Shown one piece after another: positions 12,530 through 53,830 of a DNA stretch of 64,000 nt. Numbering within the stretch: position 1 is the stretch's first letter; every line of letters begins with the position of its first letter. A program made the position numbers and the translations under genes. Source of the DNA: a virus; IMG/VR virus record IMGVR_UViG_3300037961_003440, positions 30,365-94,364 of that record; one strand, written 5' to 3'. The notes below the pieces were generated by a model, which did no database searches, was not told where the DNA came from, and saw nothing but the letters and a program-made list of their open reading frames with translations.

Positions 12530-13885
12530 ATGACAGTTAGTGCTTATGTTGATGAAGGAAAATGTTTAGTTTTTCCTACAATGTGCGATGCATATATTCA
12601 CTTAGAATATGCTAAACATAATATGAATACAAATAATGGATTGTGGAATATTAATGGTTCTTTTACAGGTCAATTTATTATTAAGCCTTATGATGTAAAT
12701 GGTTATGGTGATAATACAGGCCAAACAAATAAAGATTTAGTAGCAAATGGTGGGGCAGGAAATATTACAAATAAAAAAACAATGCCAGCAATTGCTGATG
12801 GTGCAAAAGATAGTTTTGCTGCTCATGTTTTTAGAAATAATCAAGCCGAAAAATATTTACCAAATAGAGAAAGATATTTGGCTAAAGATATGACTGGTCA
12901 AATAATAAATAATAATCCGCATGAAATGTGTTTGTTTCATAATAACAATATAACTGTCAATTTAGTTAATACTACTGACCATAATCAAAATAATCCTGCT
13001 GAATATAAAGTACAATTTAAATTAACCATAGATGGAACAGAAACAATATTGGAATCAACTAATGTATTTACAAGTAGAAAATATCATTATTCTGATGTTT
13101 CTAAAGTTAGAAATCAAGTTATATCTGATGGTTCTACTGTAACTGTATTTGATGATTATCATTTGCAATTTGTTTATGACAAATATAAAATTATAGGAAA
13201 AGAGGCAGGACAACCACCTCATTCATTAATAGGTAATGAATACAAAGAAGGATATACAATAAAATTTACACCGGGAAATACACCAACTTCTGAATTTAAT
13301 ACAAATTTAAATCAAGCAGGAATTGTAATAAATGACCCTACGGGTAATCAACCAACTCCTTTTGAATCTATACCTATTGGAACAGAAATGTTCACCGAAG
13401 ATGGAATATCATTAGGTAAAGTAATGATGGTTATTCCTAAAGCACCTCCTATTTTCCCAAATCATGCTATTGCATTTCACCCCCTTCCGGCAGGTTCTAC
13501 AATACCAATTTTAAGAGATGGTGCTAAAATTTATACTGCTATTCACCGTGAGCCAATGTATATTCATACCACTACGCATATTTCTGTTGCTTATGAACAA
13601 ACTACAAGAAGAATGAGTATATTCGCAAATGGTATAGAAGTGGCTACTACAACACACGATTCTACAACAGGTAGTTTTTCTTTAGATGCAAGTGATGTAT
13701 ATATTGGTCAAAATGCTACTTTAGCATATCCTAACGATAGAAAAACACAATTTATGGGTGAGTTAGACAGTATATTATTTACTGATACATATATGACTAA
13801 TTATACGCATTTATTTAATCCTGTTGCGCCATACCAAAATATAATGCTTTATTACGATTTTAGTGAGGGGAGAGATAATGGTTAA
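12530..13885 (+). CDS. LamG/concanavalin-like tail protein
   Basis: HISVAYEQ..RMSIFANGIEV...VYIGQN...FMGELDSI LamG signature, interrupted by an insertion. Confidence 0.7.
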   Translation: MTVSAYVDEGKCLVFPTMCDAYIHLEYAKHNMNTNNGLWNINGSFTGQFIIKPYDVNGYGDNTGQTNKDLVANGGAGNITNKKTMPAIADGAKDSFAAHVFRNNQAEKYLPNRERYLAKDMTGQIINNNPHEMCLFHNNNITVNLVNTTDHNQNNPAEYKVQFKLTIDGTETILESTNVFTSRKYHYSDVSKVRNQVISDGSTVTVFDDYHLQFVYDKYKIIGKEAGQPPHSLIGNEYKEGYTIKFTPGNTPTSEFNTNLNQAGIVINDPTGNQPTPFESIPIGTEMFTEDGISLGKVMMVIPKAPPIFPNHAIAFHPLPAGSTIPILRDGAKIYTAIHREPMYIHTTTHISVAYEQTTRRMSIFANGIEVATTTHDSTTGSFSLDASDVYIGQNATLAYPNDRKTQFMGELDSILFTDTYMTNYTHLFNPVAPYQNIMLYYDFSEGRDNG

Positions 13886-16800
13886 TGTAGAATATAATTC
13901 AACCATAATACCATTAAATGTTGGTGTTCCGCTTCTTAGTCCTGTTTCAACATGGCCTCATACTTCAGGTACTTATAGCGATACGGGTTCTACAATTAAA
14001 AGTGCTTTTTATAATGTAAGTCAAAATCCAAGAATAATTATTAAAAATACATATGTTGGAAAAAGTATTAATTGTTATGAAATACACAATTCTCCAGATA
14101 CACCTTTATCGAGTGTTGCTTCAAATGTTTTTGAAGTTAAAAATATACAACGCTCAGGTGGTTTTAGTACTTCGGTATTAAATAGAGTCTATCCTTTTAA
14201 TTTAAATCTTGAAAGTTATTTAGAAGTAAGTGCCGCTACAAAGGGAAATAGAATTTGTTTAGAAGGACAAGGTGCATTAACAACATTAATTAGTGGTTCT
14301 ACTTTAGATACAGCAAGTGATTATTTTGTTGTAATAAATGCAGATGACCCTTTAAATCATCATATTGCTAAAATTACAGAATTACATACTTATGAAGTAT
14401 TTGGAGATGGTTTTGATTTTGAACCTGCTTATCATAAAGAAGTTCCAAAAGGTACTAAAATTAGTATATATAAAGGCCCAGATTCAACTGATACACATAT
14501 AGTAGCAGTAGGTTATGGATTATTAGGAGATTCTACAACAAGTGATGAAAGACACGATAGTTATGTAGAAGTTAGTAGACCAACATTTTATTTTTACGAA
14601 GATAGATGCGATGTAAATAAATTACTCGGAGATACAAAATATAAAGTTACTAAAACTTCAGCACACGGTTCAGGTGACCCATTTACCGGAGGTAGTTTAA
14701 CTTTTGATTTTGGTAAAAAACAATCAACAGCACATAGTTTATTTCATTTAACAACACCAGATTTACATAAGTTTGGTTCTTCTATATGTTTTAAAACCAC
14801 ATCTTCACACGGTAATTTTATTCAAGATAAATCAAGATATAGTCAATTTGGTTTATTAAAAGATAATTTAAAAATAAACGATGAAACTATAACACAAGCA
14901 TCTGGAGTAATGAAACAAAGAATAGTATCTAATGGTGCAGTAGAAGTTTATAATAACCCTAATATAGATTATATATGGAATACACAACCACATTCAGAAA
15001 CATATGATACAAGTTTAGGTGAATGGGATAAATGTTTTAAAAATATAAATAGAGATGGACATCATTTAACAACAGGTTTAAGTAAAGAATCTTATGATTC
15101 TAATATTAAAAGATATGTTGAATATGAAAATTCTGATACAAAAAATAACGCAATACCTCAAGTATCTAATATAGATATATATGAATCAATAGTTAGTGTT
15201 GGTAATTTTATTGAGGTAAATATACCTGACCCTAATAGAATAGTAGATTTAAAAATAAAACCATATGATAAAGTATCTTTAAGAGAACAATTAGATGATA
15301 TTGATTATGAAGGAAGAATGAGCATACCTTTAATTGGTAATGCTAACTCAAGTACAACAGGTTGGAGTTTAACAATAAAAGGGTTAAGTCCAAATCAAGA
15401 CTTAAGAACAATATGGGGAAGTTCAGATGTTGCCGCTTTAAATCCAGATGGAGTAGCGCATAGTGATAATTTAAATAAATTAAGAATAAAAAATATTATT
15501 TTTATGGGAGATTTTAATTCTGCACCGGTTCAGGGTGATGATGGTTATGAACAAGTATTTACTATTACACATAGAAGAAATGTAAATACAGATGCTACTT
15601 GGGTAGTTTGTACAGGTAATTGGTCTTTAGAAGATTTTGTAAATGAAACTGCCTTTGTTTATACTTACAATGGTAGAACTAAATTATTTAATACTAATGT
15701 ACAGATAGATACAGAATGGGATGGTACTAATTTAAAAAGAGATGGTAATATAGTCGGAATTAATGATTCTTATTTATCTAATACAGAATTTTTTGTTAGA
15801 GATAGAGATTTAACGGGTTTTAGAATACCAATAAAATATGGTGACAAAAATTTAAATTATCTTAAACCTTTATATGATGATTATGATTGTTATCAAATTA
15901 AAACTACCGTAAGAGGGAATAATAGCATTGTTAATGTACCTAATTTATATGAATATATTAATGGTAATATTATATATGATAATAAACTATTTGAAGGAAA
16001 TGTAGAATATCTGGAAGATGAAATACAACCAAGCGGTATATTACAATATAAATTTAAAGGAAGAGATAGAGTTTCTGATGTATTAGATATTGTAGTTAAT
16101 CATAATTTTACTCATACTTCAGATTATATTTACACAACTAATAATCCTACTAATGATTTAACTACTGTAATATTTAATTCAAATGCAAATACAGTAAATA
16201 TAAAAGATTTTGATTATGGAGATACCGTAATTAGTTTATTTAGTTTTGATTCTATTATTAGCACTCAAACCAATATAGAAGTAGGAGATACATTATTTTG
16301 TAATATTAATGGAAAGTGTAGATTAATAGGTATAATACAAAGTATTTCAGGAGAAACAGCAGTATCAGGTACTTATTGGAATGGTTCAACAAGAACGGCT
16401 ATTCCTCAACCTAATAATGGGTATAATATTACTTTAACAGAAGCAACAAATTACTCTTCTAAAAATAAAACCTACGGTGCAGATAATTTAAGAGTTAGTA
16501 AAAAGACTACTTCTTTAGGAAAGGCTTTATCTTCTAATTTATCTAATAATATAAGACCTACTTCATTAGAAGGTTGTTCAAACAAAGGACTATTATTTGT
16601 TGACGGTAATAGTATAAATTTAACAAGTGGAGAAAAAATAGAAAAATTAAGCAATTTATCTGCTATTGATTCAGAATTTTCTCAAGGTTTTCCTATTTCA
16701 AATATAAAAGGTAATGAAATAAGTGCAAATTTACCAGATTATAAATTTAACATAACCACAGATATTAATGAAAATATTATTAAAAAGTATGATACTATAA

Positions 16801-19800
16801 GTAGTCCGACAGAAATGGGAGTATTAAAAATAGAAGCATTAGAAAATAAACTATCGCTTATTACTTTAGCACCAATTTTTCCTGTTGTATTAGCAAAGAC
16901 AGCCGAAAATACATTAGACACTACTTTAACAAATTCACAAGGATTATATTTTGTAAATACACAGGGGTTATCTAATGGAGGATTTTTACATTATCTTAGT
17001 AGTGAAACTAATAATAACGGGGCATCTAAAACCTTTACAAATCCCGGATATATTGATGACCCAACAGATGTAGATGGTATAGATTATAGACTTGAAGATA
17101 ATTATGGTACATTTATATGGAGATATATTGGTCTACAAGAATCAGATAGCACATTGGTTTGGAATAATGCTATGATAGATAGAGTTTGGAATGTTAAATA
17201 TAGCCAAACAAATAGAGAATTAAATCATATGTATGGAAATAAATCTCCTATTAATGGTTATGCTTCTGCTGTTAGAATAGAATATGATGGAGTAGTTAGA
17301 AATTGGGATTATCAATCAGTAATAACACAAGCATGGTTAAAGCAAAATTCACCTGAAGGTAGAGAAGGATTTTATAATATTGAAGGTTCAAGATTTTGGG
17401 ATATTCTTAAAATGCCTAATGAAATTAGAAATCAAATTGCAGGTTTTGGTTTAGTGCTTAACCCAACATATGCGTTTAGAGAATCAAGTCTTAGAAGTTA
17501 TTATCCTAAACTTTCTACAAGAATAGGTTTTCCCGGAGATTTAATTAACAATTTAACAGGTACATATTATCAGTATAGAGAAAATTATGAAGCATTTGAT
17601 AAAGGTATAGAAAACTTTTATTTATTTTCAACAGGAGATATATATCCTGATAGTTATAAAAGAACAAATAGTATAGGTTTTACAAATAGAAATTTGTCAG
17701 ATTATGGTATTATTTTTAAATCAAAGGGTGTTAAAGGCAATACTATAATAGAACATAGTAATTATAAAGGTACAATAGTAGATACATTAGAAAGTGACAC
17801 AAGTTATGAAATAATGCCTATAAATAATTCTAATAAAAATACTTCTGAATTAAAAAGAATGGGTTTAATGAGATTAATAGAGGTAACCTATGATTGGCAT
17901 TTTAATGAAGTAGATTATGAAAATTTAGATGATATAGTAAAATCAAGAAAATCAAGATTTACAACTGAAATAAAACCATTAGGTGATTATGTAGAGTTTT
18001 TTCCGGGCGAAATAGATATGTTAAAAACATCTTTTGGTAATCCAAAAGTAATAGGTTTTAGTATAGATGGTTCTACACAAGCAAATGGAGAATATACTGA
18101 ATCAGGGTCACTTAACGGTAGTGCTTTACCATATTATATTATAGAAGAAGGTTCAACAACAATTCCAAACACAGTATCAGGGGTAATGGACTTTTTTAAA
18201 ATATATACAGATTATGATAATTTTGATACAGGTTCAACTAATTTACTTGGTACTTATCAAGCCCAAATTTTAGGATTAACAAATATTGAAGGTGGTTATA
18301 GAACAGTCAATACAGGGCCTAATCAATTAAGATTACAAGGTTCTTGGCATACAGAAACAGGTATATTAGCAGGTAATTTAGCATCAAGTGTTACACAACA
18401 ACCTATTGGTGGTACTGTTGGTACTTATACTGCTGTTGTTACTACAACAAATAATACCAATAGAGCAAGAGGATTTATTTGTGATATTACATTAGATTCA
18501 CCAACTAATGTATCATCTATAGTATTTCATGAAGAATCAAGTAGCGTATTTATTGGTAAGAATATACATTATAAAGGTGCTCATTATCAAGCAGGAGATA
18601 CTGTTACAATTGCTGGTTCTGCTGTGGGTTCTTCGCAAGACATTATTATTACCCTACAAAATTCCGATTTAACTACCGAACATAGAATATATTTATTTCA
18701 AACCGGTCAAGCATCTGGGCAAAATAATAATGCACTAAATTATGAAGATGTAATTACAGGTACTAATATTAAAAGATGTGATTATACCGGTTTATTAAAA
18801 ATGACAGCAGATGGACAAGATGAGCCTCAAGATATACATTCTTATGAAGTAAGAACAAATGAAGGTGATTTTATTGCTAATAGTATTGCATATACAGGAT
18901 TAAGAGCAGAAAACTATTTCTTTAACTATACTACAATTTTAGGTGCATTAGATAATGATGATGGATTTTATAAAGGAGTATATGAAGATACAGCAATAAC
19001 TACTCAGACTGATGCAGAAAAACAAAAGGGGTATCATATATTTATTCCTTATCATGTAACAGGGGGAAGCAGAAATAATTTACATGAATCTGTTGGTGCA
19101 TTACCATTAAAAAGAGGTACGCCTATAAGATTTGGTAGTCTATTACCTTTTTCACAAGGCGTAGATGTAGATTTAAGAAGTACACAAGGTAACACAACAA
19201 AATCTTTATCAAGAGTTATAGATGCATTTTCTGAATGGGATGATGGAACACAAACTGCAAATACAAGACCTGTTGGTTATGCACCAAGTCATTTATATAC
19301 AGATACTATGTTAGTTATTAAAAGATTAAAAGCACATAATCATTCAATGCTTGGACAATCAAAAGGTTTTCCTATGCAAAATGCTCATATTTATGGCGAT
19401 ACAACTTCTATTAACACTAAGATAAATACAGAAGAAATTTATAATGGTTCTACAATACCAAACTTACATTTATCTTTTTGTTTTACAGATTCACAATCTT
19501 CATTCCCTTCAATTTTATACGCTTATAATTTTACAGATGTATCACAATACCCTAATAGAACAACTTATGGTTTTGAATCTACGGGTACTCAGGCATATGG
19601 TTCTGTATCAACAAATAACCATAGATTTTTATCTTCAACAGGAGGTAGAAATGTAGTAGATGATAGAGGAAATGATTTATTGGATAAATCAGACCAAATA
19701 TACGGGGCAGAAATTTTATTTAAATTAAATTTATCTTTACTTGCCAGCAATGTATCAGTTATAGAATTAGATAATTTATCTCAAACAAGTGGAAGTTTAA

Positions 19801-21644
19801 CACTTAATGCTAATGGCTCTACTACAAATGGTAGAGCAGTAATTAAAATTGAACAAGTAGATATTGCATCTGAGGATGGTTTTTCTACAAATAATGCAGG
19901 TACATTAGTTAATGTAGATGTGTCCTCATCTTTTAATAAGATTAATCAATGGGTTAATTTTGTTAATGATTTAACAGGTCATTATTTAGTTTCCGAACAA
20001 GATTTATCTAATAATGATATTCCTTTGTATATACACTCAAGAAGAAATGATGTACAAGAATCTACGGCAAATCTTATACATCAAGTTATTAGCCATAATA
20101 TTAATCATAACGGTACTACAATAACACATTATATAGAAATAGATAATGTTCCTTATTCAAATGGTTCTCATCAATTATATAATATGTATAGAGTTATGAG
20201 AATAGCAAAGGACTGTACTTTTGATTTTACCCCTAATGATGTAGAAATGTATAAATTATCAAATAGATTTACTCGTATGCCAGCAGAAAATAAATGTTAT
20301 ACATTAGTAGGAAATTCAAATATTTTTCCTCATCGTGGTGCAGCAAGTACAAATTTAACAGCGTGTAATGAAGCAGTATTATCTATGTATGTAGGTTTAG
20401 ATGTAGATGGAAAACCTAATTCAGATTATATTGTTAAAAGAGTTAATAATAGTTTTGCTACTGTTGATGGTAATAATAATACATTTATTAAAAATAAATC
20501 TTATAATTGTTTAGTTACAGATGGGATAACAGATTTAAATAAAGATTTATTATTTACAGGTGACGGTAGCCTTTCAAACCCCGATAGAATTGTATTTTCA
20601 GGTCAAATGAAAAATTTAAAAGGTATAGTTTCAATAGGTGAAGCATTTTCAGTAACTACTCAAAGAAATCCAATAAACAATACTGTTAAAAGATGTAATA
20701 TAGCAAGCACAGTAGATATAGTAGAAGAAGTAGATGAGATAACAAATACTATATTAGAAACTAATAATATACAATTTAATCCAGAATATAATGTTACAAA
20801 TGATTTATATTACATAGGTAACAATTACATAGGTAATAATGCCTTTTCAGTTATTAATAGATTATTAAATTATAAAAATAAAAGATTATATATTGATGGA
20901 AGAAATATAAAAGGGTTAGATAATATTCCTGACGAATGGAAAACTAATATAGTTTTATCAGAAAATGATGTTGATTCTCAAGTTAGCAATATTAAAAGAA
21001 TACAATCTACATTTGATTTCTTTAATCATGTAGTAGTTTATGGTGATGGAGTAAAAGGTACTGGTAGAAATAGACAATCAATAAAAGAAACTGATAGAAC
21101 AATAACTAAGGAAATAACAGACTTAACAATAAAAACACAAAAGGCCGCAGATGATTTAGCAATATCAACAGTAGAAACTCTTGATTCATTAAATAGTCAA
21201 GTAGAATTTCAAATACCCAGATTTAAAATACCATATCTAAAGGCCGGTCATATTATTACATTAGATTATCCTACTCAAAAAATACCAACAAATTTTTATC
21301 AAGTCTTAGAAATACAAACTATATTTGGACAATTGCCTAAAGTTATATTAGGTAAGTATAGTCAATCTTTAGCAGGAGTATATACAGATATTATAATTAA
21401 AAATCAAGAAACAGATGGTCAATTGAGGGGAGATAATTTTACTGATGAAACAGCAAATGTTTCCGAAGATGATGATTCCTTTATTCAACCAATGAAACTA
21501 AAAATAACTAAAACAACAACGGCATCAAGTTCTAATAGTACAATAGGGTTTAATAACCTAATAGGGTTTAACAGTAGTGTAGGGTTTGTTTCTACATCAT
21601 CAAGTAGCCAAGAAGTAATATTAGATGAGGACTTAACGGGGTGA
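13863..21644 (+). CDS. Giant baseplate hub/central tail adhesin
   Basis: 2593 aa. Hub-like segments FEGNVEY..YKFKGRD and FNHVVVYG...LKAGHIITLDY..YQVLEI flank a very large N/T/S-rich insertion. Confidence 0.6.
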   Translation: MRGEIMVNVEYNSTIIPLNVGVPLLSPVSTWPHTSGTYSDTGSTIKSAFYNVSQNPRIIIKNTYVGKSINCYEIHNSPDTPLSSVASNVFEVKNIQRSGGFSTSVLNRVYPFNLNLESYLEVSAATKGNRICLEGQGALTTLISGSTLDTASDYFVVINADDPLNHHIAKITELHTYEVFGDGFDFEPAYHKEVPKGTKISIYKGPDSTDTHIVAVGYGLLGDSTTSDERHDSYVEVSRPTFYFYEDRCDVNKLLGDTKYKVTKTSAHGSGDPFTGGSLTFDFGKKQSTAHSLFHLTTPDLHKFGSSICFKTTSSHGNFIQDKSRYSQFGLLKDNLKINDETITQASGVMKQRIVSNGAVEVYNNPNIDYIWNTQPHSETYDTSLGEWDKCFKNINRDGHHLTTGLSKESYDSNIKRYVEYENSDTKNNAIPQVSNIDIYESIVSVGNFIEVNIPDPNRIVDLKIKPYDKVSLREQLDDIDYEGRMSIPLIGNANSSTTGWSLTIKGLSPNQDLRTIWGSSDVAALNPDGVAHSDNLNKLRIKNIIFMGDFNSAPVQGDDGYEQVFTITHRRNVNTDATWVVCTGNWSLEDFVNETAFVYTYNGRTKLFNTNVQIDTEWDGTNLKRDGNIVGINDSYLSNTEFFVRDRDLTGFRIPIKYGDKNLNYLKPLYDDYDCYQIKTTVRGNNSIVNVPNLYEYINGNIIYDNKLFEGNVEYLEDEIQPSGILQYKFKGRDRVSDVLDIVVNHNFTHTSDYIYTTNNPTNDLTTVIFNSNANTVNIKDFDYGDTVISLFSFDSIISTQTNIEVGDTLFCNINGKCRLIGIIQSISGETAVSGTYWNGSTRTAIPQPNNGYNITLTEATNYSSKNKTYGADNLRVSKKTTSLGKALSSNLSNNIRPTSLEGCSNKGLLFVDGNSINLTSGEKIEKLSNLSAIDSEFSQGFPISNIKGNEISANLPDYKFNITTDINENIIKKYDTISSPTEMGVLKIEALENKLSLITLAPIFPVVLAKTAENTLDTTLTNSQGLYFVNTQGLSNGGFLHYLSSETNNNGASKTFTNPGYIDDPTDVDGIDYRLEDNYGTFIWRYIGLQESDSTLVWNNAMIDRVWNVKYSQTNRELNHMYGNKSPINGYASAVRIEYDGVVRNWDYQSVITQAWLKQNSPEGREGFYNIEGSRFWDILKMPNEIRNQIAGFGLVLNPTYAFRESSLRSYYPKLSTRIGFPGDLINNLTGTYYQYRENYEAFDKGIENFYLFSTGDIYPDSYKRTNSIGFTNRNLSDYGIIFKSKGVKGNTIIEHSNYKGTIVDTLESDTSYEIMPINNSNKNTSELKRMGLMRLIEVTYDWHFNEVDYENLDDIVKSRKSRFTTEIKPLGDYVEFFPGEIDMLKTSFGNPKVIGFSIDGSTQANGEYTESGSLNGSALPYYIIEEGSTTIPNTVSGVMDFFKIYTDYDNFDTGSTNLLGTYQAQILGLTNIEGGYRTVNTGPNQLRLQGSWHTETGILAGNLASSVTQQPIGGTVGTYTAVVTTTNNTNRARGFICDITLDSPTNVSSIVFHEESSSVFIGKNIHYKGAHYQAGDTVTIAGSAVGSSQDIIITLQNSDLTTEHRIYLFQTGQASGQNNNALNYEDVITGTNIKRCDYTGLLKMTADGQDEPQDIHSYEVRTNEGDFIANSIAYTGLRAENYFFNYTTILGALDNDDGFYKGVYEDTAITTQTDAEKQKGYHIFIPYHVTGGSRNNLHESVGALPLKRGTPIRFGSLLPFSQGVDVDLRSTQGNTTKSLSRVIDAFSEWDDGTQTANTRPVGYAPSHLYTDTMLVIKRLKAHNHSMLGQSKGFPMQNAHIYGDTTSINTKINTEEIYNGSTIPNLHLSFCFTDSQSSFPSILYAYNFTDVSQYPNRTTYGFESTGTQAYGSVSTNNHRFLSSTGGRNVVDDRGNDLLDKSDQIYGAEILFKLNLSLLASNVSVIELDNLSQTSGSLTLNANGSTTNGRAVIKIEQVDIASEDGFSTNNAGTLVNVDVSSSFNKINQWVNFVNDLTGHYLVSEQDLSNNDIPLYIHSRRNDVQESTANLIHQVISHNINHNGTTITHYIEIDNVPYSNGSHQLYNMYRVMRIAKDCTFDFTPNDVEMYKLSNRFTRMPAENKCYTLVGNSNIFPHRGAASTNLTACNEAVLSMYVGLDVDGKPNSDYIVKRVNNSFATVDGNNNTFIKNKSYNCLVTDGITDLNKDLLFTGDGSLSNPDRIVFSGQMKNLKGIVSIGEAFSVTTQRNPINNTVKRCNIASTVDIVEEVDEITNTILETNNIQFNPEYNVTNDLYYIGNNYIGNNAFSVINRLLNYKNKRLYIDGRNIKGLDNIPDEWKTNIVLSENDVDSQVSNIKRIQSTFDFFNHVVVYGDGVKGTGRNRQSIKETDRTITKEITDLTIKTQKAADDLAISTVETLDSLNSQVEFQIPRFKIPYLKAGHIITLDYPTQKIPTNFYQVLEIQTIFGQLPKVILGKYSQSLAGVYTDIIIKNQETDGQLRGDNFTDETANVSEDDDSFIQPMKLKITKTTTASSSNSTIGFNNLIGFNSSVGFVSTSSSSQEVILDEDLTG

Positions 21645-29791: not shown

Positions 29792-30608
29792 AATGAATAC
29801 ATTTTTTATAGAAATAAGATGCTTTCCATTCTTGTTCTAAATATGATTCAATTAACTTTTCAAATGAAGCCTTAACTGCGGTTTCAGAACGCTTAGAAAC
29901 TTTTTCAGCATATACATAATTACTTGCTGGATAATACCAAGCCCAATGAGTAAAAGGAATATCAGGGTCTAATCCTAATTTTCTAATTTGTTCGGGGTCA
30001 GCATTTTCAAATAGTATTTTATAAAACGCCATTTCTTTTCTCATAACTGTTTTCTTAGTATCTTTCCAAGCACCTGTTTTTAATTCCATAGGTATATATC
30101 CTCCATCTTCAAAAAATAGTCTATCAATAATACCTTGCAAGTGTACTTCAATACCTGATTCAGTAGTGTACTTTGCATCTAACATTATTTCATTTCCAAT
30201 AGGAATAAATGTATCAAGAGTTTCTTCTTGATGACATTCAATAAACCTTTCAGTATTATAAGCAGACATAGCCGTGTATAAATCTTCATAATCTTCTTTA
30301 TCTGTTTCGGGGTAAAGACTTCTAAAATGCTTTTGTAATTTCATAGGTTCTTCTATAAATTCTAACGCATCATCAATCTTTACAATTTTCCAAAACTCTT
30401 CTTGGGCATTATGTACAATTGTACCTTTAATCATAGCAGGACTTGTTTTTTGTTTTATATCGTCAATATATCCATACTTATAATTAAGGTTACAAAAGCC
30501 ATAACTACCAATAGAAGATTTTGTAATCTTTAATATAGGCGGTTTTCCATCTGTATTTCCTTCCCATTTATATGTGTATTCTCCATTTTCTTTTCTCATT
30601 CTAAACAC
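29730..30608 (-). CDS. Cas4-like/PD-(D/E)xK exonuclease
   Basis: KGTIVH, GIIDRL, MELKTG, N-terminal Cys plus C-terminal CxxCxxxxxC. Confidence 0.85.
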   Translation of the reverse strand: MFRMRKENGEYTYKWEGNTDGKPPILKITKSSIGSYGFCNLNYKYGYIDDIKQKTSPAMIKGTIVHNAQEEFWKIVKIDDALEFIEEPMKLQKHFRSLYPETDKEDYEDLYTAMSAYNTERFIECHQEETLDTFIPIGNEIMLDAKYTTESGIEVHLQGIIDRLFFEDGGYIPMELKTGAWKDTKKTVMRKEMAFYKILFENADPEQIRKLGLDPDIPFTHWAWYYPASNYVYAEKVSKRSETAVKASFEKLIESYLEQEWKASYFYKKCIHCGHYDHCEAADGGSQNDDWF

Positions 30609-33524: not shown

Positions 33525-34577
33525 TTAATATAATCCATGAGGTTTTGCTTCTAATTGTCCTGCTTGTGTAACTCTACAAAATGTTGCTTTAGTTTGAAAA
33601 TCAGTAATAGTATGTGCGCCTACATAACTCATAGAGGATTTAATTCCATCAGATATATCATTAACTATTCTTCTTACCTTTCCTTTATATGGTGTAATTT
33701 TAGAATTACCTTCTACATTTTTAGTTTCTTCCCCTCGTGCTGTTTTAGAATCAATAGAAGCAGAACCTTGATACTTTTTGTATAATTGTTCATTAGGCCA
33801 TTGACCCATTTTAGATATAATTCCCGGAGTTTCTTTTGTTCCTGCAAATAAAGAACCTACCATAACTGCATCAGCACCAAGAGCAATTGCTTTAGGAATA
33901 TCTCCTACTGTTTTACAACCGCCATCAGCAACAATATATGGTATTTCATCTAAGTCTAAAACTTCGTTTATATGATATGCAATATCTAATAATGCTGTTG
34001 CTTGAGGAACACCAACACCTGCTCTAATTCTTGTTTCACACATAGAACCATTACCAATTCCTACTCTTAAAGAATCAGCACCTGCTTCAATTAATCTTTC
34101 AGCCGCACCTTTAGTTACAATATTTCCAGCCATTACATGAATGTCCTCAAATTCTTCTTTAATATAAGCAATCATTTCACCGACTAATTCATGGTCGCCA
34201 TGTGCAACATCAATACAAACACCTTGAATATTAGTATAACCTACTAATGAATCAAATCTATCTTTACCTTTTTGACCTACACCAACTGCCGCAATATATT
34301 GTCCTCTTACTTCTGATTCAATATCATAACATAATGCTACTTGTTCTTTAATAGATTGAAATCTATGTAATACACCAATACCACCAAGTTTTGCTAATTC
34401 AATACACATTTCTGTACCGCATACCGTGTCCATTGGTGAAGCAATTAATGGTACATTTAAATTAAAATTACCAAATTCTACCGATGTATCACAATGACTT
34501 CTTGATTTTATATCCGACATATATGGTATAATACTAATATCATCATAAGTTAAACTATCTCTTTCTTCTATTTTCAA
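33525..34577 (-). CDS. IMP dehydrogenase/GMP reductase family (no CBS domain)
   Basis: [42 protein letters not shown]. Confidence 0.92.
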
Positions 34578-43591: not shown

Positions 43592-43810
43592 TCATTCTTC
43601 ACTCTCCCTGAGTTCTAACATTTCTTTATATTCATTTTCATACTTGTATGGTTTCTCTAACGCATAAAGTAAATCATCTACACTTACACCTTTTACATCA
43701 TGTAAAAATCTACATAGTGCTACGATATTATTATGGTCTGCATACCATTCCCAATATTTTTTATTTTCCATTTTATTCATCTTCATCATCTCCTGTATTC
43801 CATTCTCCAA
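43592..43810 (-). CDS. Hypothetical protein
   Basis: Operon ORF. Confidence 0.55.
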   Translation of the reverse strand: MENGIQEMMKMNKMENKKYWEWYADHNNIVALCRFLHDVKGVSVDDLLYALEKPYKYENEYKEMLELRESEE

Positions 43811-44054
43811 ATTCTAAATCATCTTCTTTCTTTTCTATAACCCTATCATTAAAATTAACTGATGCTATCTTAACATGATTAACAGTTAATCTTGTTTTTG
43901 TTTTATCTCCACCTGCTTCTTCATTACAAAATTCAGCAAACTGTTCCAAAATTCTTTCGGCTCTTGTTTGAAATTCTGTAATTGCTACCAAAGGCAATTG
44001 TCTATCGGGTGCTATCTTCTCAAATATTCTTTTTATTTCTCTTACGCTAACCAT
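43773..44054 (-). CDS. Histone-fold protein with acidic tail
   Basis: REIKRIFEKIAPDRQLPLVAITEFQTRAERILEQFAEFCNEEA..KTKTRLTVNHVKIA matches alpha1-L1-alpha2-L2-alpha3 spacing. Confidence 0.7.
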   Translation of the reverse strand: MVSVREIKRIFEKIAPDRQLPLVAITEFQTRAERILEQFAEFCNEEAGGDKTKTRLTVNHVKIASVNFNDRVIEKKEDDLEFGEWNTGDDEDE

Positions 44055-44464
44055 TTATTTACACTCTCCTTGTTGTAAAAATATTTTGGATTTTCAACTT
44101 CTTTAAGGTTCAAGGCAATCCAAACCGAACCACTTAGAGAATCAACTCTAATTACTTCATAGTTTTCTGTAACAATATATGTTTCTACATTTGGCGTTTT
44201 ACCATACAATCTTTGTATTTCTTGTGATACCGATTGAATATTATCAACAATATATTTTATTATTAACGGCATTTGTATTTCCACATATGGTTCAGAATCT
44301 AATTCATATATCCCTGTTTGATTACAAACATTACAATTTTGTCCATTACATATAGGGCATTTAATTTCTAAATTAGATAATACAGGAAACCTTACTCTTC
44401 GGACTCGTCTAATTCCATTAGATTCGTCTTGCTTAGAAATTGCTTTTCTTTGCTTTTCCACCAT
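44042..44464 (-). CDS. Zn-finger protein (CxxCxG..CxxC)
   Basis: CPICNGQNCNVCNQTG. Confidence 0.55.
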   Translation of the reverse strand: MVEKQRKAISKQDESNGIRRVRRVRFPVLSNLEIKCPICNGQNCNVCNQTGIYELDSEPYVEIQMPLIIKYIVDNIQSVSQEIQRLYGKTPNVETYIVTENYEVIRVDSLSGSVWIALNLKEVENPKYFYNKESVNKWLA

Positions 44465-44817
44465 TTCATTCTCTCCTTATCACCAATTACAATTGCTGAA
44501 TTAAGAATAGGTAATTGAGTATTAATAGTATTCCAATCTGTATCACTAAAATAAGCCGCCCCAAATGGGTGAGTATGAATCCAGCATTTAAGCGGTATTC
44601 TCATACCAACAACTGATTCATCTTCGTAATCAACAAAACTTCTTGTACCTTTACTAATAAACAAATTATCATTACTGTCTACTATAACTGATACTTCTTT
44701 TTCATTTAGTATTTCTGTTGATAATTCCCATATAGCATTTAAGAAAACCTCACTTTCATAATTACTTTCTTCTTCATCAAACATTTCTTTTAATTTATCT
44801 TTTGCTTCTGTCCACAT
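44392..44817 (-). CDS. JAB/MPN+ metalloprotease (deubiquitinase-like)
   Basis: E(KEV)...WIHTHP...FSDTD = E-HxH-x7-S-x2-D JAMM motif. Confidence 0.88.
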   Translation of the reverse strand: MWTEAKDKLKEMFDEEESNYESEVFLNAIWELSTEILNEKEVSVIVDSNDNLFISKGTRSFVDYEDESVVGMRIPLKCWIHTHPFGAAYFSDTDWNTINTQLPILNSAIVIGDKERMKWWKSKEKQFLSKTNLMELDESEE

Positions 44818-45718: not shown

Positions 45719-46276
45719 TCACCCATTTATCCTAAAATGCTTTTCAACATAATCTCCATTAAACCATCTTTGAATCCATTGAGCACCATAACCTGCAATT
45801 ACAACTTGCATAAAATTAACTCCTTCAGGTTCTCCTTCCCAAGAATCACCTTGACAACTAAAACTACCATCTGGGCCACTTGTAAATACATTATATAATT
45901 CAGGTTTTTCTAAATGTGAAATCATAGCGGCATTTCTCGCTTGCGCTCTAAGGTCTAACCATTTAACTTTAGAATTATACATTGTTCTTCTAATATCTAA
46001 ATTGTCGGCACAACAAACAACTAAATCATATCCTTTTAATTGTCCTGCTGTTAATACAGGATAAGGTTGTGCATTAACATTATACCTTTTAGACATAGCA
46101 TTAACTTTCTTTTCATCTAAATCTTCTTTGGTAAAGTTTTGATATGTTAGATTCTTTTCCTCTACAATATCAGGGTCATAAACTGTTATATCATATATCC
46201 CTACTTTATCCAATAGTGGTATTAGAAAACTTCCAATTCCACCTGCGCCTATCAACATTACTTTTCTCTTACTCAT
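45719..46276 (-). CDS. E1-like ThiF/MoeB adenylating enzyme
   Basis: GAGGIGS, DPDIVEEKNLTYQ, KV, CADNLDIRR; C-terminal SCQ Cys. Confidence 0.9.
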   Translation of the reverse strand: MSKRKVMLIGAGGIGSFLIPLLDKVGIYDITVYDPDIVEEKNLTYQNFTKEDLDEKKVNAMSKRYNVNAQPYPVLTAGQLKGYDLVVCCADNLDIRRTMYNSKVKWLDLRAQARNAAMISHLEKPELYNVFTSGPDGSFSCQGDSWEGEPEGVNFMQVVIAGYGAQWIQRWFNGDYVEKHFRING

Positions 46277-46898
46277 TTTTTCTCACTTTCCTTAAGTTCC
46301 TTTTTAATCTCGGCAAACTAACTCCGAATTTTTTACACACTTCTTTTTGAGTATATGGTGTGTGTTCATATACATATGCGGCAATAATACCTCTTGTTAG
46401 AGTCTGCGATTTATTCCAAAATTTACACGCATCGCTAACTTCTTTAGAATTGATTTCCATATTAAATAAAAACTCGTCAATATCATTTATACCAAACACT
46501 CCAGAATTAGAATAATGTCTTGCAATCTTTTTTGCTAATCTTGATGCTCTTGATATTTTACAACCTAAGAATTTACAATACTTTCGCAAATTTGTCGGTT
46601 TATTTAAATCTCTCATTGTGTAATATAATATAGCGACAGCCCTTTCAGCACTATCATAACTATAATATAAATTAGTATAAGATATATACTTGTCATTTTT
46701 TAATACTTCTTCCTTATCTTCTATGTCATATTCATTTAATAACATTGTTAAATCATTTATCATTACCTTATTATTAGGTAATATATCATTAACCTCATAT
46801 ATTCTATAAGCCTGAATACATCCACAAACTGAACAAACAGGGAGATTAATTTCTTTGTTTAAGTTCAGGTGCTTCGCTTGACAATTTACACACGGCAT
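46269..46898 (-). CDS. Transcription factor B (TFB/TFIIB)-like protein
   Basis: N-terminal Zn ribbon CVNC..VCSVCG; two cyclin-like repeats (AVAILYYTMR; IIAAYVY..TQKEVCKKFGVS). Confidence 0.8.
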   Translation of the reverse strand: MPCVNCQAKHLNLNKEINLPVCSVCGCIQAYRIYEVNDILPNNKVMINDLTMLLNEYDIEDKEEVLKNDKYISYTNLYYSYDSAERAVAILYYTMRDLNKPTNLRKYCKFLGCKISRASRLAKKIARHYSNSGVFGINDIDEFLFNMEINSKEVSDACKFWNKSQTLTRGIIAAYVYEHTPYTQKEVCKKFGVSLPRLKRNLRKVRKNE

Positions 46899-48093
46899 CC
46901 CAATCTAACCTAATATCAGTTTGTTCTTTTTCATGCCCATTAATATATCTACTAACTGTTGAAACTAATTTTACTAACATAGTATCATTCATACAAGCAA
47001 ATGCTCTTGCTGCAAATTGGTCACCAACAGATGCACCACTTGATAAATTATCAATACAAATTGGCCCTGCCCAATAAGGTTGTTTATCGGTATTATTTAT
47101 TACATTAGGTATTTCAAGATTAACATTTTGTGTAGTTTGTGTAGTTAGTACATATGTGCTAACATCTTGAATACCTCTTTTAGATTGATTATCAACAATC
47201 ATCCAATCAGCAAATTTACCTCTAACAAACATAGCCAAAACTTCTTGACCATTTCTTGTAAAAGTGCCTTTAGTAACATTATCGTATTTATTAACCATAT
47301 CATTAAACAATTCCATAGCCCTTTGTTCAGCCAAATCACTTCTTCTATTTTGCTTCAAAAATTCTTTCATAATTTTAATCTGTGCAGGAGTGGCTTTTTC
47401 ACCAACAGTTCTAAACCATAATTCAGCAGGTGAAACCATATACCACTTACCCGTTCTTTTATTATAAAGATAGGAATTGATAAATGTATTCAAATCTCTT
47501 GTACTAATTTCACCCCATACACCACTACTAATTTCAAGTGCATAGTTATCTTCAGCGATTCTCATCAAAGACAAACGAGTATTTCTTTCTTTGACACCTT
47601 CTGTTGTTCTTTCAAAGAATTTATACGGCACTCTATTTTCCATAGCATAAGATACATTTTCAGGAACATAAATACATCTAAAGAAATAATCATCTAACGC
47701 TTCTTGTGCTTCTTCTCCTTCGCCATTAATATAAGCAGAACGCATTATTGTTCTACTAATTGCTTTCATAATAGTATCAAGGTTAGCAAATTCACCGTTA
47801 GCCATATATCTATTGCCGACTTTACGCATATTAATTAGATATTTGCAATTACCAATTCTCATCATTATACTTTTCTTTGGGTCAGACCTAACAATAGAAA
47901 CGATACCTATTGTGCTTTTTAATGCACTATGTATGCTTTCAATTGTTGGCTCTTTAGAAATATTATTTCTTTGTCTTTGTGCCCAAATATCAATATTTCT
48001 ATTTCTTGGTATTTGTCTTGAAACTAATTTAGTTTCTATTATTGCCGTTCTATCATCGCTTGCGTGTCTTATTCTAAAAATTATTTCTCCCAT
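46846..48093 (-). CDS. Hypothetical protein with candidate E2-like active-site motif
   Basis: IPNV...GPICIDNL resembles UBC HPN...GxICLDIL; two genes upstream of E1. Confidence 0.35.
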   Translation of the reverse strand: MGEIIFRIRHASDDRTAIIETKLVSRQIPRNRNIDIWAQRQRNNISKEPTIESIHSALKSTIGIVSIVRSDPKKSIMMRIGNCKYLINMRKVGNRYMANGEFANLDTIMKAISRTIMRSAYINGEGEEAQEALDDYFFRCIYVPENVSYAMENRVPYKFFERTTEGVKERNTRLSLMRIAEDNYALEISSGVWGEISTRDLNTFINSYLYNKRTGKWYMVSPAELWFRTVGEKATPAQIKIMKEFLKQNRRSDLAEQRAMELFNDMVNKYDNVTKGTFTRNGQEVLAMFVRGKFADWMIVDNQSKRGIQDVSTYVLTTQTTQNVNLEIPNVINNTDKQPYWAGPICIDNLSSGASVGDQFAARAFACMNDTMLVKLVSTVSRYINGHEKEQTDIRLDWDAVCKLSSEAPELKQRN

Positions 48094-53608: not shown

Positions 53609-53830
53609 TTAATCGTCATCACTAATACAAGAACCGCCAACAATTGCTTGAGTTAGTACGACTTCATCAACCGCATTAAAATCAATGTTAGCAATATCTT
53701 CTCTTGAAACCAATTCACCATCAACATATGCCCAATGTGTAGGGTGGTCAATTATTTGGTCAAGTGCTTCAGTTGCACTTAGAGTTAATTCTGTATGTCC
53801 TGTTTCATTCAATATTGTTATCTTTACCAT
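53609..53830 (-). CDS. Ubiquitin-like (SAMP/ThiS beta-grasp) protein precursor
   Basis: MVKITIL...WAYVDGELV...DEVVLTQAIVGG followed by a 7-aa extension SCISDDD. Confidence 0.8.
   Translation of the reverse strand: MVKITILNETGHTELTLSATEALDQIIDHPTHWAYVDGELVSREDIANIDFNAVDEVVLTQAIVGGSCISDDD

Follow-up and report, generated by a model that had tools for sequence, protein, structure and literature searches.

P0001, a Candidate Divergent E2-Like Protein Encoded with a Ubiquitin-Like Gene Set in a Magrovirus-Like Virus of Marine Archaea

Introduction

Does a virus of archaea carry an E2 of its own for the conjugation of ubiquitin-like (Ubl) proteins? Eukaryotes, a few archaea, and bacterial defense operons (Bil, Bub, and CBASS) are known to use an E2 step in Ubl conjugation. 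The question is raised here by a stretch of 64,000 nucleotides (hereafter the window), positions 30,365 to 94,364 of the IMG/VR virus record IMGVR_UViG_3300037961_003440, in which a gene at 46846-48093 on the minus strand encodes a protein of 415 residues, P0001. A preliminary description made from the letters of the window proposed that P0001 is a divergent E2 on the basis of a short motif in its C-terminal region. We consider it fairly probable that P0001 is a divergent, non-canonical E2-like carrier of a virus-encoded Ubl conjugation set, in which the N-terminal ~250 residues of the protein may choose the targets.

The window belongs to a 94-kb record that is about 61% complete and has a G+C content of 30%. 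It encodes a tail tube gene, a family B DNA polymerase, an IMPDH/GMP-reductase-like gene, an RFC-like clamp loader, an ATP-dependent ligase, and a class II ribonucleotide reductase (RNR). The nearest named relatives of the DNA polymerase are those of haloarchaeal tailed viruses, and the host domain is therefore taken to be the archaea. The gene content matches the description of the magroviruses (PMC5434244), and we infer that the virus is a magrovirus-like tailed virus of marine archaea, which is not a formal classification.

The P0001 Family and Its Invariant Cysteine

The open reading frame (ORF) of P0001 is real according to the ORF list and its translation, and its strand, which the preliminary description had left out, is the minus strand. 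The gene starts 1 base after the stop of an upstream gene for a 398-aa product and shares 53 nt with the next gene. The C-terminal peptide quoted in the preliminary description is present as residues 327-353. By translation the GPICIDN motif is encoded at 47047-47067 (minus strand) with the codon of Cys346 at 47056-47058 (minus strand).

Searched in full with HMMER, a set of 1.84 billion cluster representatives yielded 159 relatives of P0001, mostly ~370-470 aa long. The family was seen only in marine viral and metagenome data, and at least 166 contigs in IMG/VR encode it. Just seven columns are invariant in an alignment (A1) of 71 representatives, whose identity to P0001 is 21-74%: W193, G292, Q309, C346, Q359, R363, and T379. 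Conservation of the cysteine had been set beforehand as one of two points on which the E2 proposal could fail, the other being the fold, and Cys346 is found in 71 of the 71 homologues. The motif around it reads W.GPICIDN, in which I345, I347, D348, and N349 are each shared by 62-65 of the 71 sequences, and SS.GDQFA.RA.A..ND comes after it. A set of invariant residues in helix 2 (G357, D358, Q359, R363, N369, and D370) is particular to the family. Cys346 together with these invariant polar neighbors points to catalysis, as far as can be read from sequence. When the whole window is translated in six frames (127,996 residues), the pattern G.IC[IL]D is seen 1 time and the second half of the PROSITE UBC pattern 2 times, and the GPICIDN motif by itself is weak evidence. 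The preliminary description had allowed that the motif could be coincidental, which is a fair view of the motif taken alone but does not account for the invariance of the cysteine, which is a real observation.

The conservation extends beyond the C-terminal domain, as residues 143-250 are strongly conserved and include the invariant W193, while residues 1-75 are variable. Outside the family P0001 has no sequence match in Pfam, PHROG, PADLOC, or the PDB, no tblastn match in 50,697 phage records, and its region has no megablast match. A profile search with the domain only against a set of 5.8 billion proteins returned fragments of the same family, with no free-standing or Pfam-annotated relative among the 120 matches listed, and the distant member P0111 had no match in IMG/VR.

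Predicted Fold of the C-Terminal Domain

Prediction by AlphaFold in the absence of an alignment gave an unusable model (predicted local distance difference test, pLDDT, of 34), whereas the AlphaFold2 (AF2) model computed with the 71-sequence alignment has a pLDDT of 88.3 and a predicted template modeling score (pTM) of 0.77. The pLDDT is 78-96 over most of residues 250-400 and lower over an insertion at 321-336. The C-terminal domain (residues ~250-400; 46894-47346, minus strand) is predicted to begin with a helix (251-269) that is followed by strands at 273-280, 283-291, 296-301, and 311-320, the low-confidence insertion, a strand (337-345) that leads into Cys346, and helices at 356-368, 370-383, and 398-407. 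The preliminary description had expected strand-like segments before the cysteine and a helix after it, and the model places strands over 273-345 and helices over 356-407.

The predicted fold of this domain resembles UBC, UEV, and RWD domains more closely than other solved folds. One superfamily dominates the top structural matches, which cover the whole E2 core and are colinear with it. At the level of the model, the UBC core elements are all found: an N-terminal helix, a four-stranded antiparallel sheet, a crossover helix, and C-terminal helices. In E2s the loop that joins strand 4 to helix 2 holds the catalytic Cys, and Cys346 lies 10 residues before the helix 356-368; this placement is based on the order of secondary structure elements, the alignment ranges, and the hhalign alignment described below. 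The comparison of folds that the preliminary description had proposed as a check thus leads to the UBC/UEV/RWD group, with no Foldseek match to the PDB at E <= 0.001. Foldseek against BFVD found just three unnamed members of the P0001 family, and the ESM Atlas had no usable match to residues 245-415.

The N-terminal ~249 residues (47347-48093, minus strand), as delimited by alignment A1 and the secondary structure of the model, have no consistent structural match, and their profile resembles neither UBC nor the C-terminal domain. An internal duplication that would relate the N-terminal or middle part to the C-terminal domain or to UBC was also considered and rejected, as hhalign was negative and the one apparent match consisted of six residues common to both slices.

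Comparison with E2 Enzymes

The C-terminal domain was also compared with E2 enzymes at the level of sequence profiles. The comparison set consisted of 73 distinct giant-virus UBC E2s from IMG/VR that were fetched by a degenerate DNA pattern for HPNI...G.IC.DIL, and the query was an alignment of the P0001 C-terminal domain built from related loci (alignment A2). In the hhalign result, query columns 12-108 lie on template columns 11-100 (score 23.1, P 0.0073), with helix 1 on helix 1, GPICIDN on G-ICLDIL, and Cys346 on the catalytic Cys of the E2s. This score was reached by 0 of 100 column shuffles (mean 12.8, sd 2.6) and by 0 of 100 shuffles of eight-column blocks (mean 15.4, sd 2.2). Scores of 12-14 were obtained with four unrelated controls, namely the reversed alignment, the ThiF alignment, the Ubl alignment, and the N-terminal part of the family. 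When the domain was taken from alignment A1, which is independent of A2, the match covered the same columns with a score of 21.5. The E2 signal is thus modest: it appears reproducible and in line with the structural alignment, and it falls below a significant database match.

The preliminary description had seen in P0001 an echo of the complete UBC active site. The GPICIDN half of this echo is conserved, with Cys346 invariant and aligned to the catalytic Cys. The HPN half was rejected, as the columns of EIPNVINN belong to a lineage-specific insertion and are gapped in 42-50 of the 71 homologues. Because these columns are gapped in most homologues, the resemblance of IPN to HPN is coincidental.

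Partner Genes

Three further genes of the set encode a putative Ubl, an E1, and a peptidase. The minimal ThiF-type E1 (185 aa; 45719-46276, minus strand) matches Pfam ThiF at 5e-16 and the PADLOC Cap2 E1-E2 models at 9e-12, where it corresponds to the E1 part of the CBASS Cap2 models. The closest solved relatives of this protein are UBA5 (6e-10), followed by a ThiF-type protein (9egc), Cap2, and MoeB. Three features are kept by the E1 in 50 sequences: the GxGGxG motif, the DN..R motif, and Cys141, which is invariant and lies in GSFSCQ. The distance from the DN motif to Cys141 is 50 residues, which puts it at the crossover-loop position, also the site of the Cys in ThiF, MoeB, and UBA5. The JAB/JAMM metalloprotease (141 aa; 44392-44817, minus strand) has the motif HxHx7Sx2D, intact in 73 of 73 homologues, and matches Prok-JAB at 1.9e-4, which is below the Pfam cut-off, and PADLOC JAB at 1.1e-3.

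The Ubl-like protein (73 aa; 53609-53830, minus strand) is encoded 5.5 kb upstream of P0001 and by translation ends in AIVGG plus the tail SCISDDD. Homologues are present in 65 loci, and those that were parsed all keep AIVGG, after which come 0-9 variable, unrelated residues, with two as the commonest number, which suggests the behavior of a Ubl precursor. The protein has no Pfam ThiS match and no PDB profile match, and its beta-grasp fold is thus putative; a weak lead in the ESM Atlas connects it to a Thermoplasmatota ThiS cluster (score 0.82). The alignment of the Ubl-like proteins (A4) also contains three invariant histidines (H12 in NETGHT; H29 and H32 in HPTHW) and an invariant W33. Such residues are unusual for ThiS, MoaD, or ubiquitin and might form a metal site or a contact with the E1.

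Conserved Gene Neighborhood

The gene context was counted over 80 related loci, each with a P0001 homologue. In 76 of the 80, ThiF lies downstream of the P0001 homologue and in the same orientation, with a gap of 0.5-3 kb between the two genes, and the loci without ThiF end early downstream. JAB is likewise downstream on the same strand in 73 of the 80. In the present window the ThiF-type E1 is the second gene downstream of P0001, in agreement with the preliminary description, which had placed P0001 two genes upstream of the E1. In a lineage that is ~29% identical in P0001, the E2-like, TFB-like, ThiF, JAB, and zinc-finger genes overlap end to end. A Ubl ending in Gly, an E1 with Cys141, a JAB peptidase, and P0001 are thus found together; classes of Ubl/E1/E2/JAB gene sets were described by Iyer et al. 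2006 (PMC1779556). The linkage of P0001, ThiF, and JAB fits a shared pathway and is no proof of one.

Three neighboring products have features of their own. A 209-aa protein encoded between P0001 and the E1 (46269-46898, minus strand) has an N-terminal CxxC...CxxC zinc ribbon and an HTH-like C-terminal end, with faint Pfam hints (Rrn7/TFIIB zinc ribbon, E 0.3; Sigma70_r4, 0.08), and may from its sequence be a TFB-like factor; recognizable homologues were found in just 35 of the 80 related loci. The gene directly upstream of P0001 (48095-49291, minus strand; 398 aa) is conserved in 57 of the 80 loci and has no family match. Besides a Cys/His cluster, HCDNHPNYCVCGHP, its product has a coiled region that is long and charged, and the letters HPN in this protein are probably part of a zinc site and not an E2 motif. 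A 140-aa protein (44042-44464, minus strand), whose gene overlaps the end of the JAB gene, carries a zinc knuckle, CPICNGQNCNVCNQTG; it is present in 63 of the 80 loci, always after JAB, and might belong to the Ubl set.

Weighing the E2 Assignment

Several results weigh against the assignment of P0001 as an E2. HMMER searches of PDB sequences, with profiles built from the complete family or from the domain alone, found no E2, and nothing at E <= 10. Pfam UQ_con (PF00179) gave no match at E <= 10 for P0001, the 71 full-length members, or the 59 isolated domains, and no Prok-E2 family is among the Pfam matches at the same threshold; these scans of 71 full-length and 59 domain sequences produced scattered single matches at most. 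UQ_con is also absent from the six frames of the virus record. The hhalign probability of A2 against the UBC E2s is just 5%, the probability against one PRTRC protein B (Prok-E2_D) sequence is 0.3%, and hhalign of the P0001 family against a PRTRC 455-aa protein was negative. Canonical E2s carry HPN 7-10 residues ahead of the Cys; P0001 has no conserved HPN, and no His or Asn before Cys346 is conserved in the 71 homologues. The model carries the extra strand 337-345 into Cys346, and canonical E2s have no such strand. Archaeal SAMP systems conjugate without any E2. Finally, RNR, the ligase, and other unknown genes are equally syntenic. Since the entire replication module is conserved, linkage to the E1 is no specific evidence of a shared pathway. 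The proposal of a divergent E2 is therefore upheld by the cysteine, the predicted fold, the profile alignment, and the Ubl/E1/JAB context, but not by any E2 match at the level of HMMs or PDB sequences, nor by an HPN motif. Because P0001 lacks HPN and matches neither the UQ_con HMM nor a Prok-E2 family, we file it as a new, virus-only E2-like family outside UQ_con.

Three other explanations have to be considered alongside this one. The Ubl, E1, and JAB could act without an E2, as in the archaeal SAMP/UbaA/JAMM systems, and P0001 could be an unrelated protein of the replication or takeover module, perhaps a target, whose likeness to E2s reflects a common alpha+beta arrangement plus a short motif. 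The missing E2 signal at the HMM level would then be expected, the host domain is one where conjugation without an E2 is established, and co-occurrence is uninformative when the whole module (RNR, ligase, and unknown genes) is syntenic. We nevertheless regard this explanation as unlikely, as one superfamily dominates the top structural matches and the whole E2 core is covered, the profile alignment sets Cys on Cys with a score above 200 of 200 shuffles, and the invariant Cys with its invariant polar neighbors points to catalysis. It is more doubtful still that the domain has a true UBC-superfamily fold and serves as a non-catalytic, UEV/RWD-like adaptor (a pseudo-E2) that binds the Ubl or the E1 without forming a thioester. 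UEV and RWD domains have no active-site Cys; the absence of HPN from P0001 suits such an adaptor, whereas Cys346 is invariant, occupies the equivalent position, and aligns to the catalytic Cys.

The small Gly-Gly protein, ThiF, and JAB could also form a sulfur-carrier pathway, like ThiS/ThiF, CysO/Mec+, or QbsE/QbsD, for a thio-modified nucleotide or cofactor, with Cys346 as a sulfur-relay or synthase residue. JAMM-trimmed tails are known in sulfur carriers such as QbsE. The viral protein resembles ThiS in its length and its C-terminal ...AIVGG, the Atlas lead to the Thermoplasmatota ThiS cluster (0.82, weak) goes in the same direction, and the genes lie within a nucleotide-metabolism and replication module that adjoins RNR and the ligase. 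Sulfur transfer is highly improbable in our view all the same: Pfam ThiS has no match to the Ubl, no rhodanese, PAPS-reductase, or PP-loop (TtuA/TilS-type) domain is found in the 94 kb of the incomplete record, the closest solved relatives of the E1 include the conjugation E1s UBA5 and Cap2, and the fold of P0001 points to E2s and away from known sulfurtransferases.

Proposed Mechanism

The reading of P0001 as an E2-like carrier is built on the gene, its family, the invariant cysteine, the predicted UBC-like topology, and the conserved gene set, all of which come directly from this analysis. The virus probably tags proteins itself. In the proposed pathway the JAB protease would trim the short tail after AIVGG of the 73-aa Ubl, and the minimal ThiF-type E1 would adenylate the exposed Gly-Gly and load the Ubl onto Cys141. 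Transthiolation would then move the Ubl to P0001, onto Cys346 of the UBC-like C-terminal domain. The target would be held by the conserved ~250 residues at the N-terminus while P0001, acting as an E2/E3 hybrid, forms the isopeptide bond, and the JAB may also undo the tagging. Each of these chemical steps, the role of the N-terminal part, and the targets are what we infer.

Relation to Known Systems

Canonical UBC E2s (UQ_con: UbcH5, UbcH7, and Ubc9) and UEV/RWD domains share with the predicted structure of P0001 the order of a helix, a four-stranded meander, a Cys loop, a crossover helix, and C-terminal helices. In canonical E2s, as in P0001, the Cys is ~10 residues before helix 2 and the local motif is G-x-I-C-[IL]-D. 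Unlike them, P0001 lacks HPN and detectable HMM similarity, has the extra strand before the Cys, an N-terminal extension of ~250 residues, and the family-specific set in helix 2, and belongs to a virus of archaea. UFC1 is an E2 without HPN. Among solved structures the viral E1 is closest to UBA5 of the UFM1 pathway, likewise a minimal E1. UBE2O, an E2/E3 hybrid in which substrate-binding regions are joined to a UBC domain, is among the fold matches of P0001. No sequence relation of P0001 to UFC1 or UBE2O was detected, and UFC1 is not among the top 50 fold matches.

Bil (BilABCD), Bub, CBASS Cap2/Cap3, and PRTRC share a parts list with the virus: a small Ubl, a ThiF-type E1, an E2-like protein, and a peptidase. 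The peptidase is a JAB in Bil and CBASS and the serine protease BubE in Bub (10.1101/2023.09.26.559546; PMC11601596; PMC10097602). The PRTRC plasmid cassette (Prok_Ub, Prok-E2_D, and ThiF) has the same order as the virus, Ubl ... E2 - ThiF. These systems belong to cells or plasmids, and several serve as antiphage defenses, whereas here the genes are a core set of a virus. In addition, the viral E1 is far shorter (185 aa), P0001 falls outside the Prok-E2 Pfam families, and the viral genes lie scattered between replication genes over ~9 kb of the present genome, in contrast to the compact bacterial operons. The archaeal SAMP system (SAMP1-3, UbaA, and HvJAMM1) resembles the viral set in its archaeal setting, small Gly-Gly protein, ThiF-type E1, and JAMM protease. 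The virus differs in adding a conserved-Cys protein with a predicted UBC-like fold and in making its Ubl with a tail that would need trimming.

Related genes occur in other viruses. Crass-like phages carry a ThiF gene; in Bacteroides phage crAss001 (MH675552.1, 77727-86056) this gene, gp76, matches the viral E1 with ~30% identity over ~108 residues and adjoins gp77, a "metalloprotease domain" protein, and unknown genes in the replication module, beside a UDG. The neighborhood of this crAss-like ThiF may be a parallel E1/peptidase set in bacteriophages; hhalign of the P0001 family against the ThiF-gene neighbors gp75, gp77, and gp78 was negative. E1-like genes were reported in Asgard viruses (10.1101/2021.07.29.454249). 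The founding magrovirus paper makes no mention of ThiF, JAB, or ubiquitin (PMC5434244), and in the papers searched we found no description of the Ubl/E1/JAB/P0001 set in magroviruses.

Other Features of the Window

The IMPDH/GMP-reductase-family enzyme is encoded at 33525-34577 (minus strand; Pfam IMPDH, 2.7e-91). A single ORF of 2593 aa lies at 13863-21644 (plus strand) in the structural half of the window. A 93-aa protein (43773-44054, minus strand), encoded just upstream of the DNA ligase, has a histone-fold-like helix pattern and an acidic tail. It has no Pfam match, and its phmmer homologues come mainly from the closest relatives and from three loci of a more distant lineage.

Implications

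A broader reading, which we put forward tentatively and hold to be a little less probable than not, is that abundant marine archaeal tailed viruses carry a full Ubl cascade of a pro-Ubl, a minimal E1, and a JAB, together with a virus-only E2 that is fused to a target-recognition region and acts as a one-protein E2/E3, and that this cascade tags host or viral proteins during takeover or replication. If this is true, viruses of uncultured marine archaea would own a Ubl cascade as a core gene set, and Ubl tagging would be used on the virus side of the conflict between prokaryotic viruses and their hosts. P0001 would then represent a very divergent E2 lineage that has no HPN and a built-in N-terminal module, which bears on the origin of E2 and E3 functions, and the four proteins would make up a small system that is open to testing.
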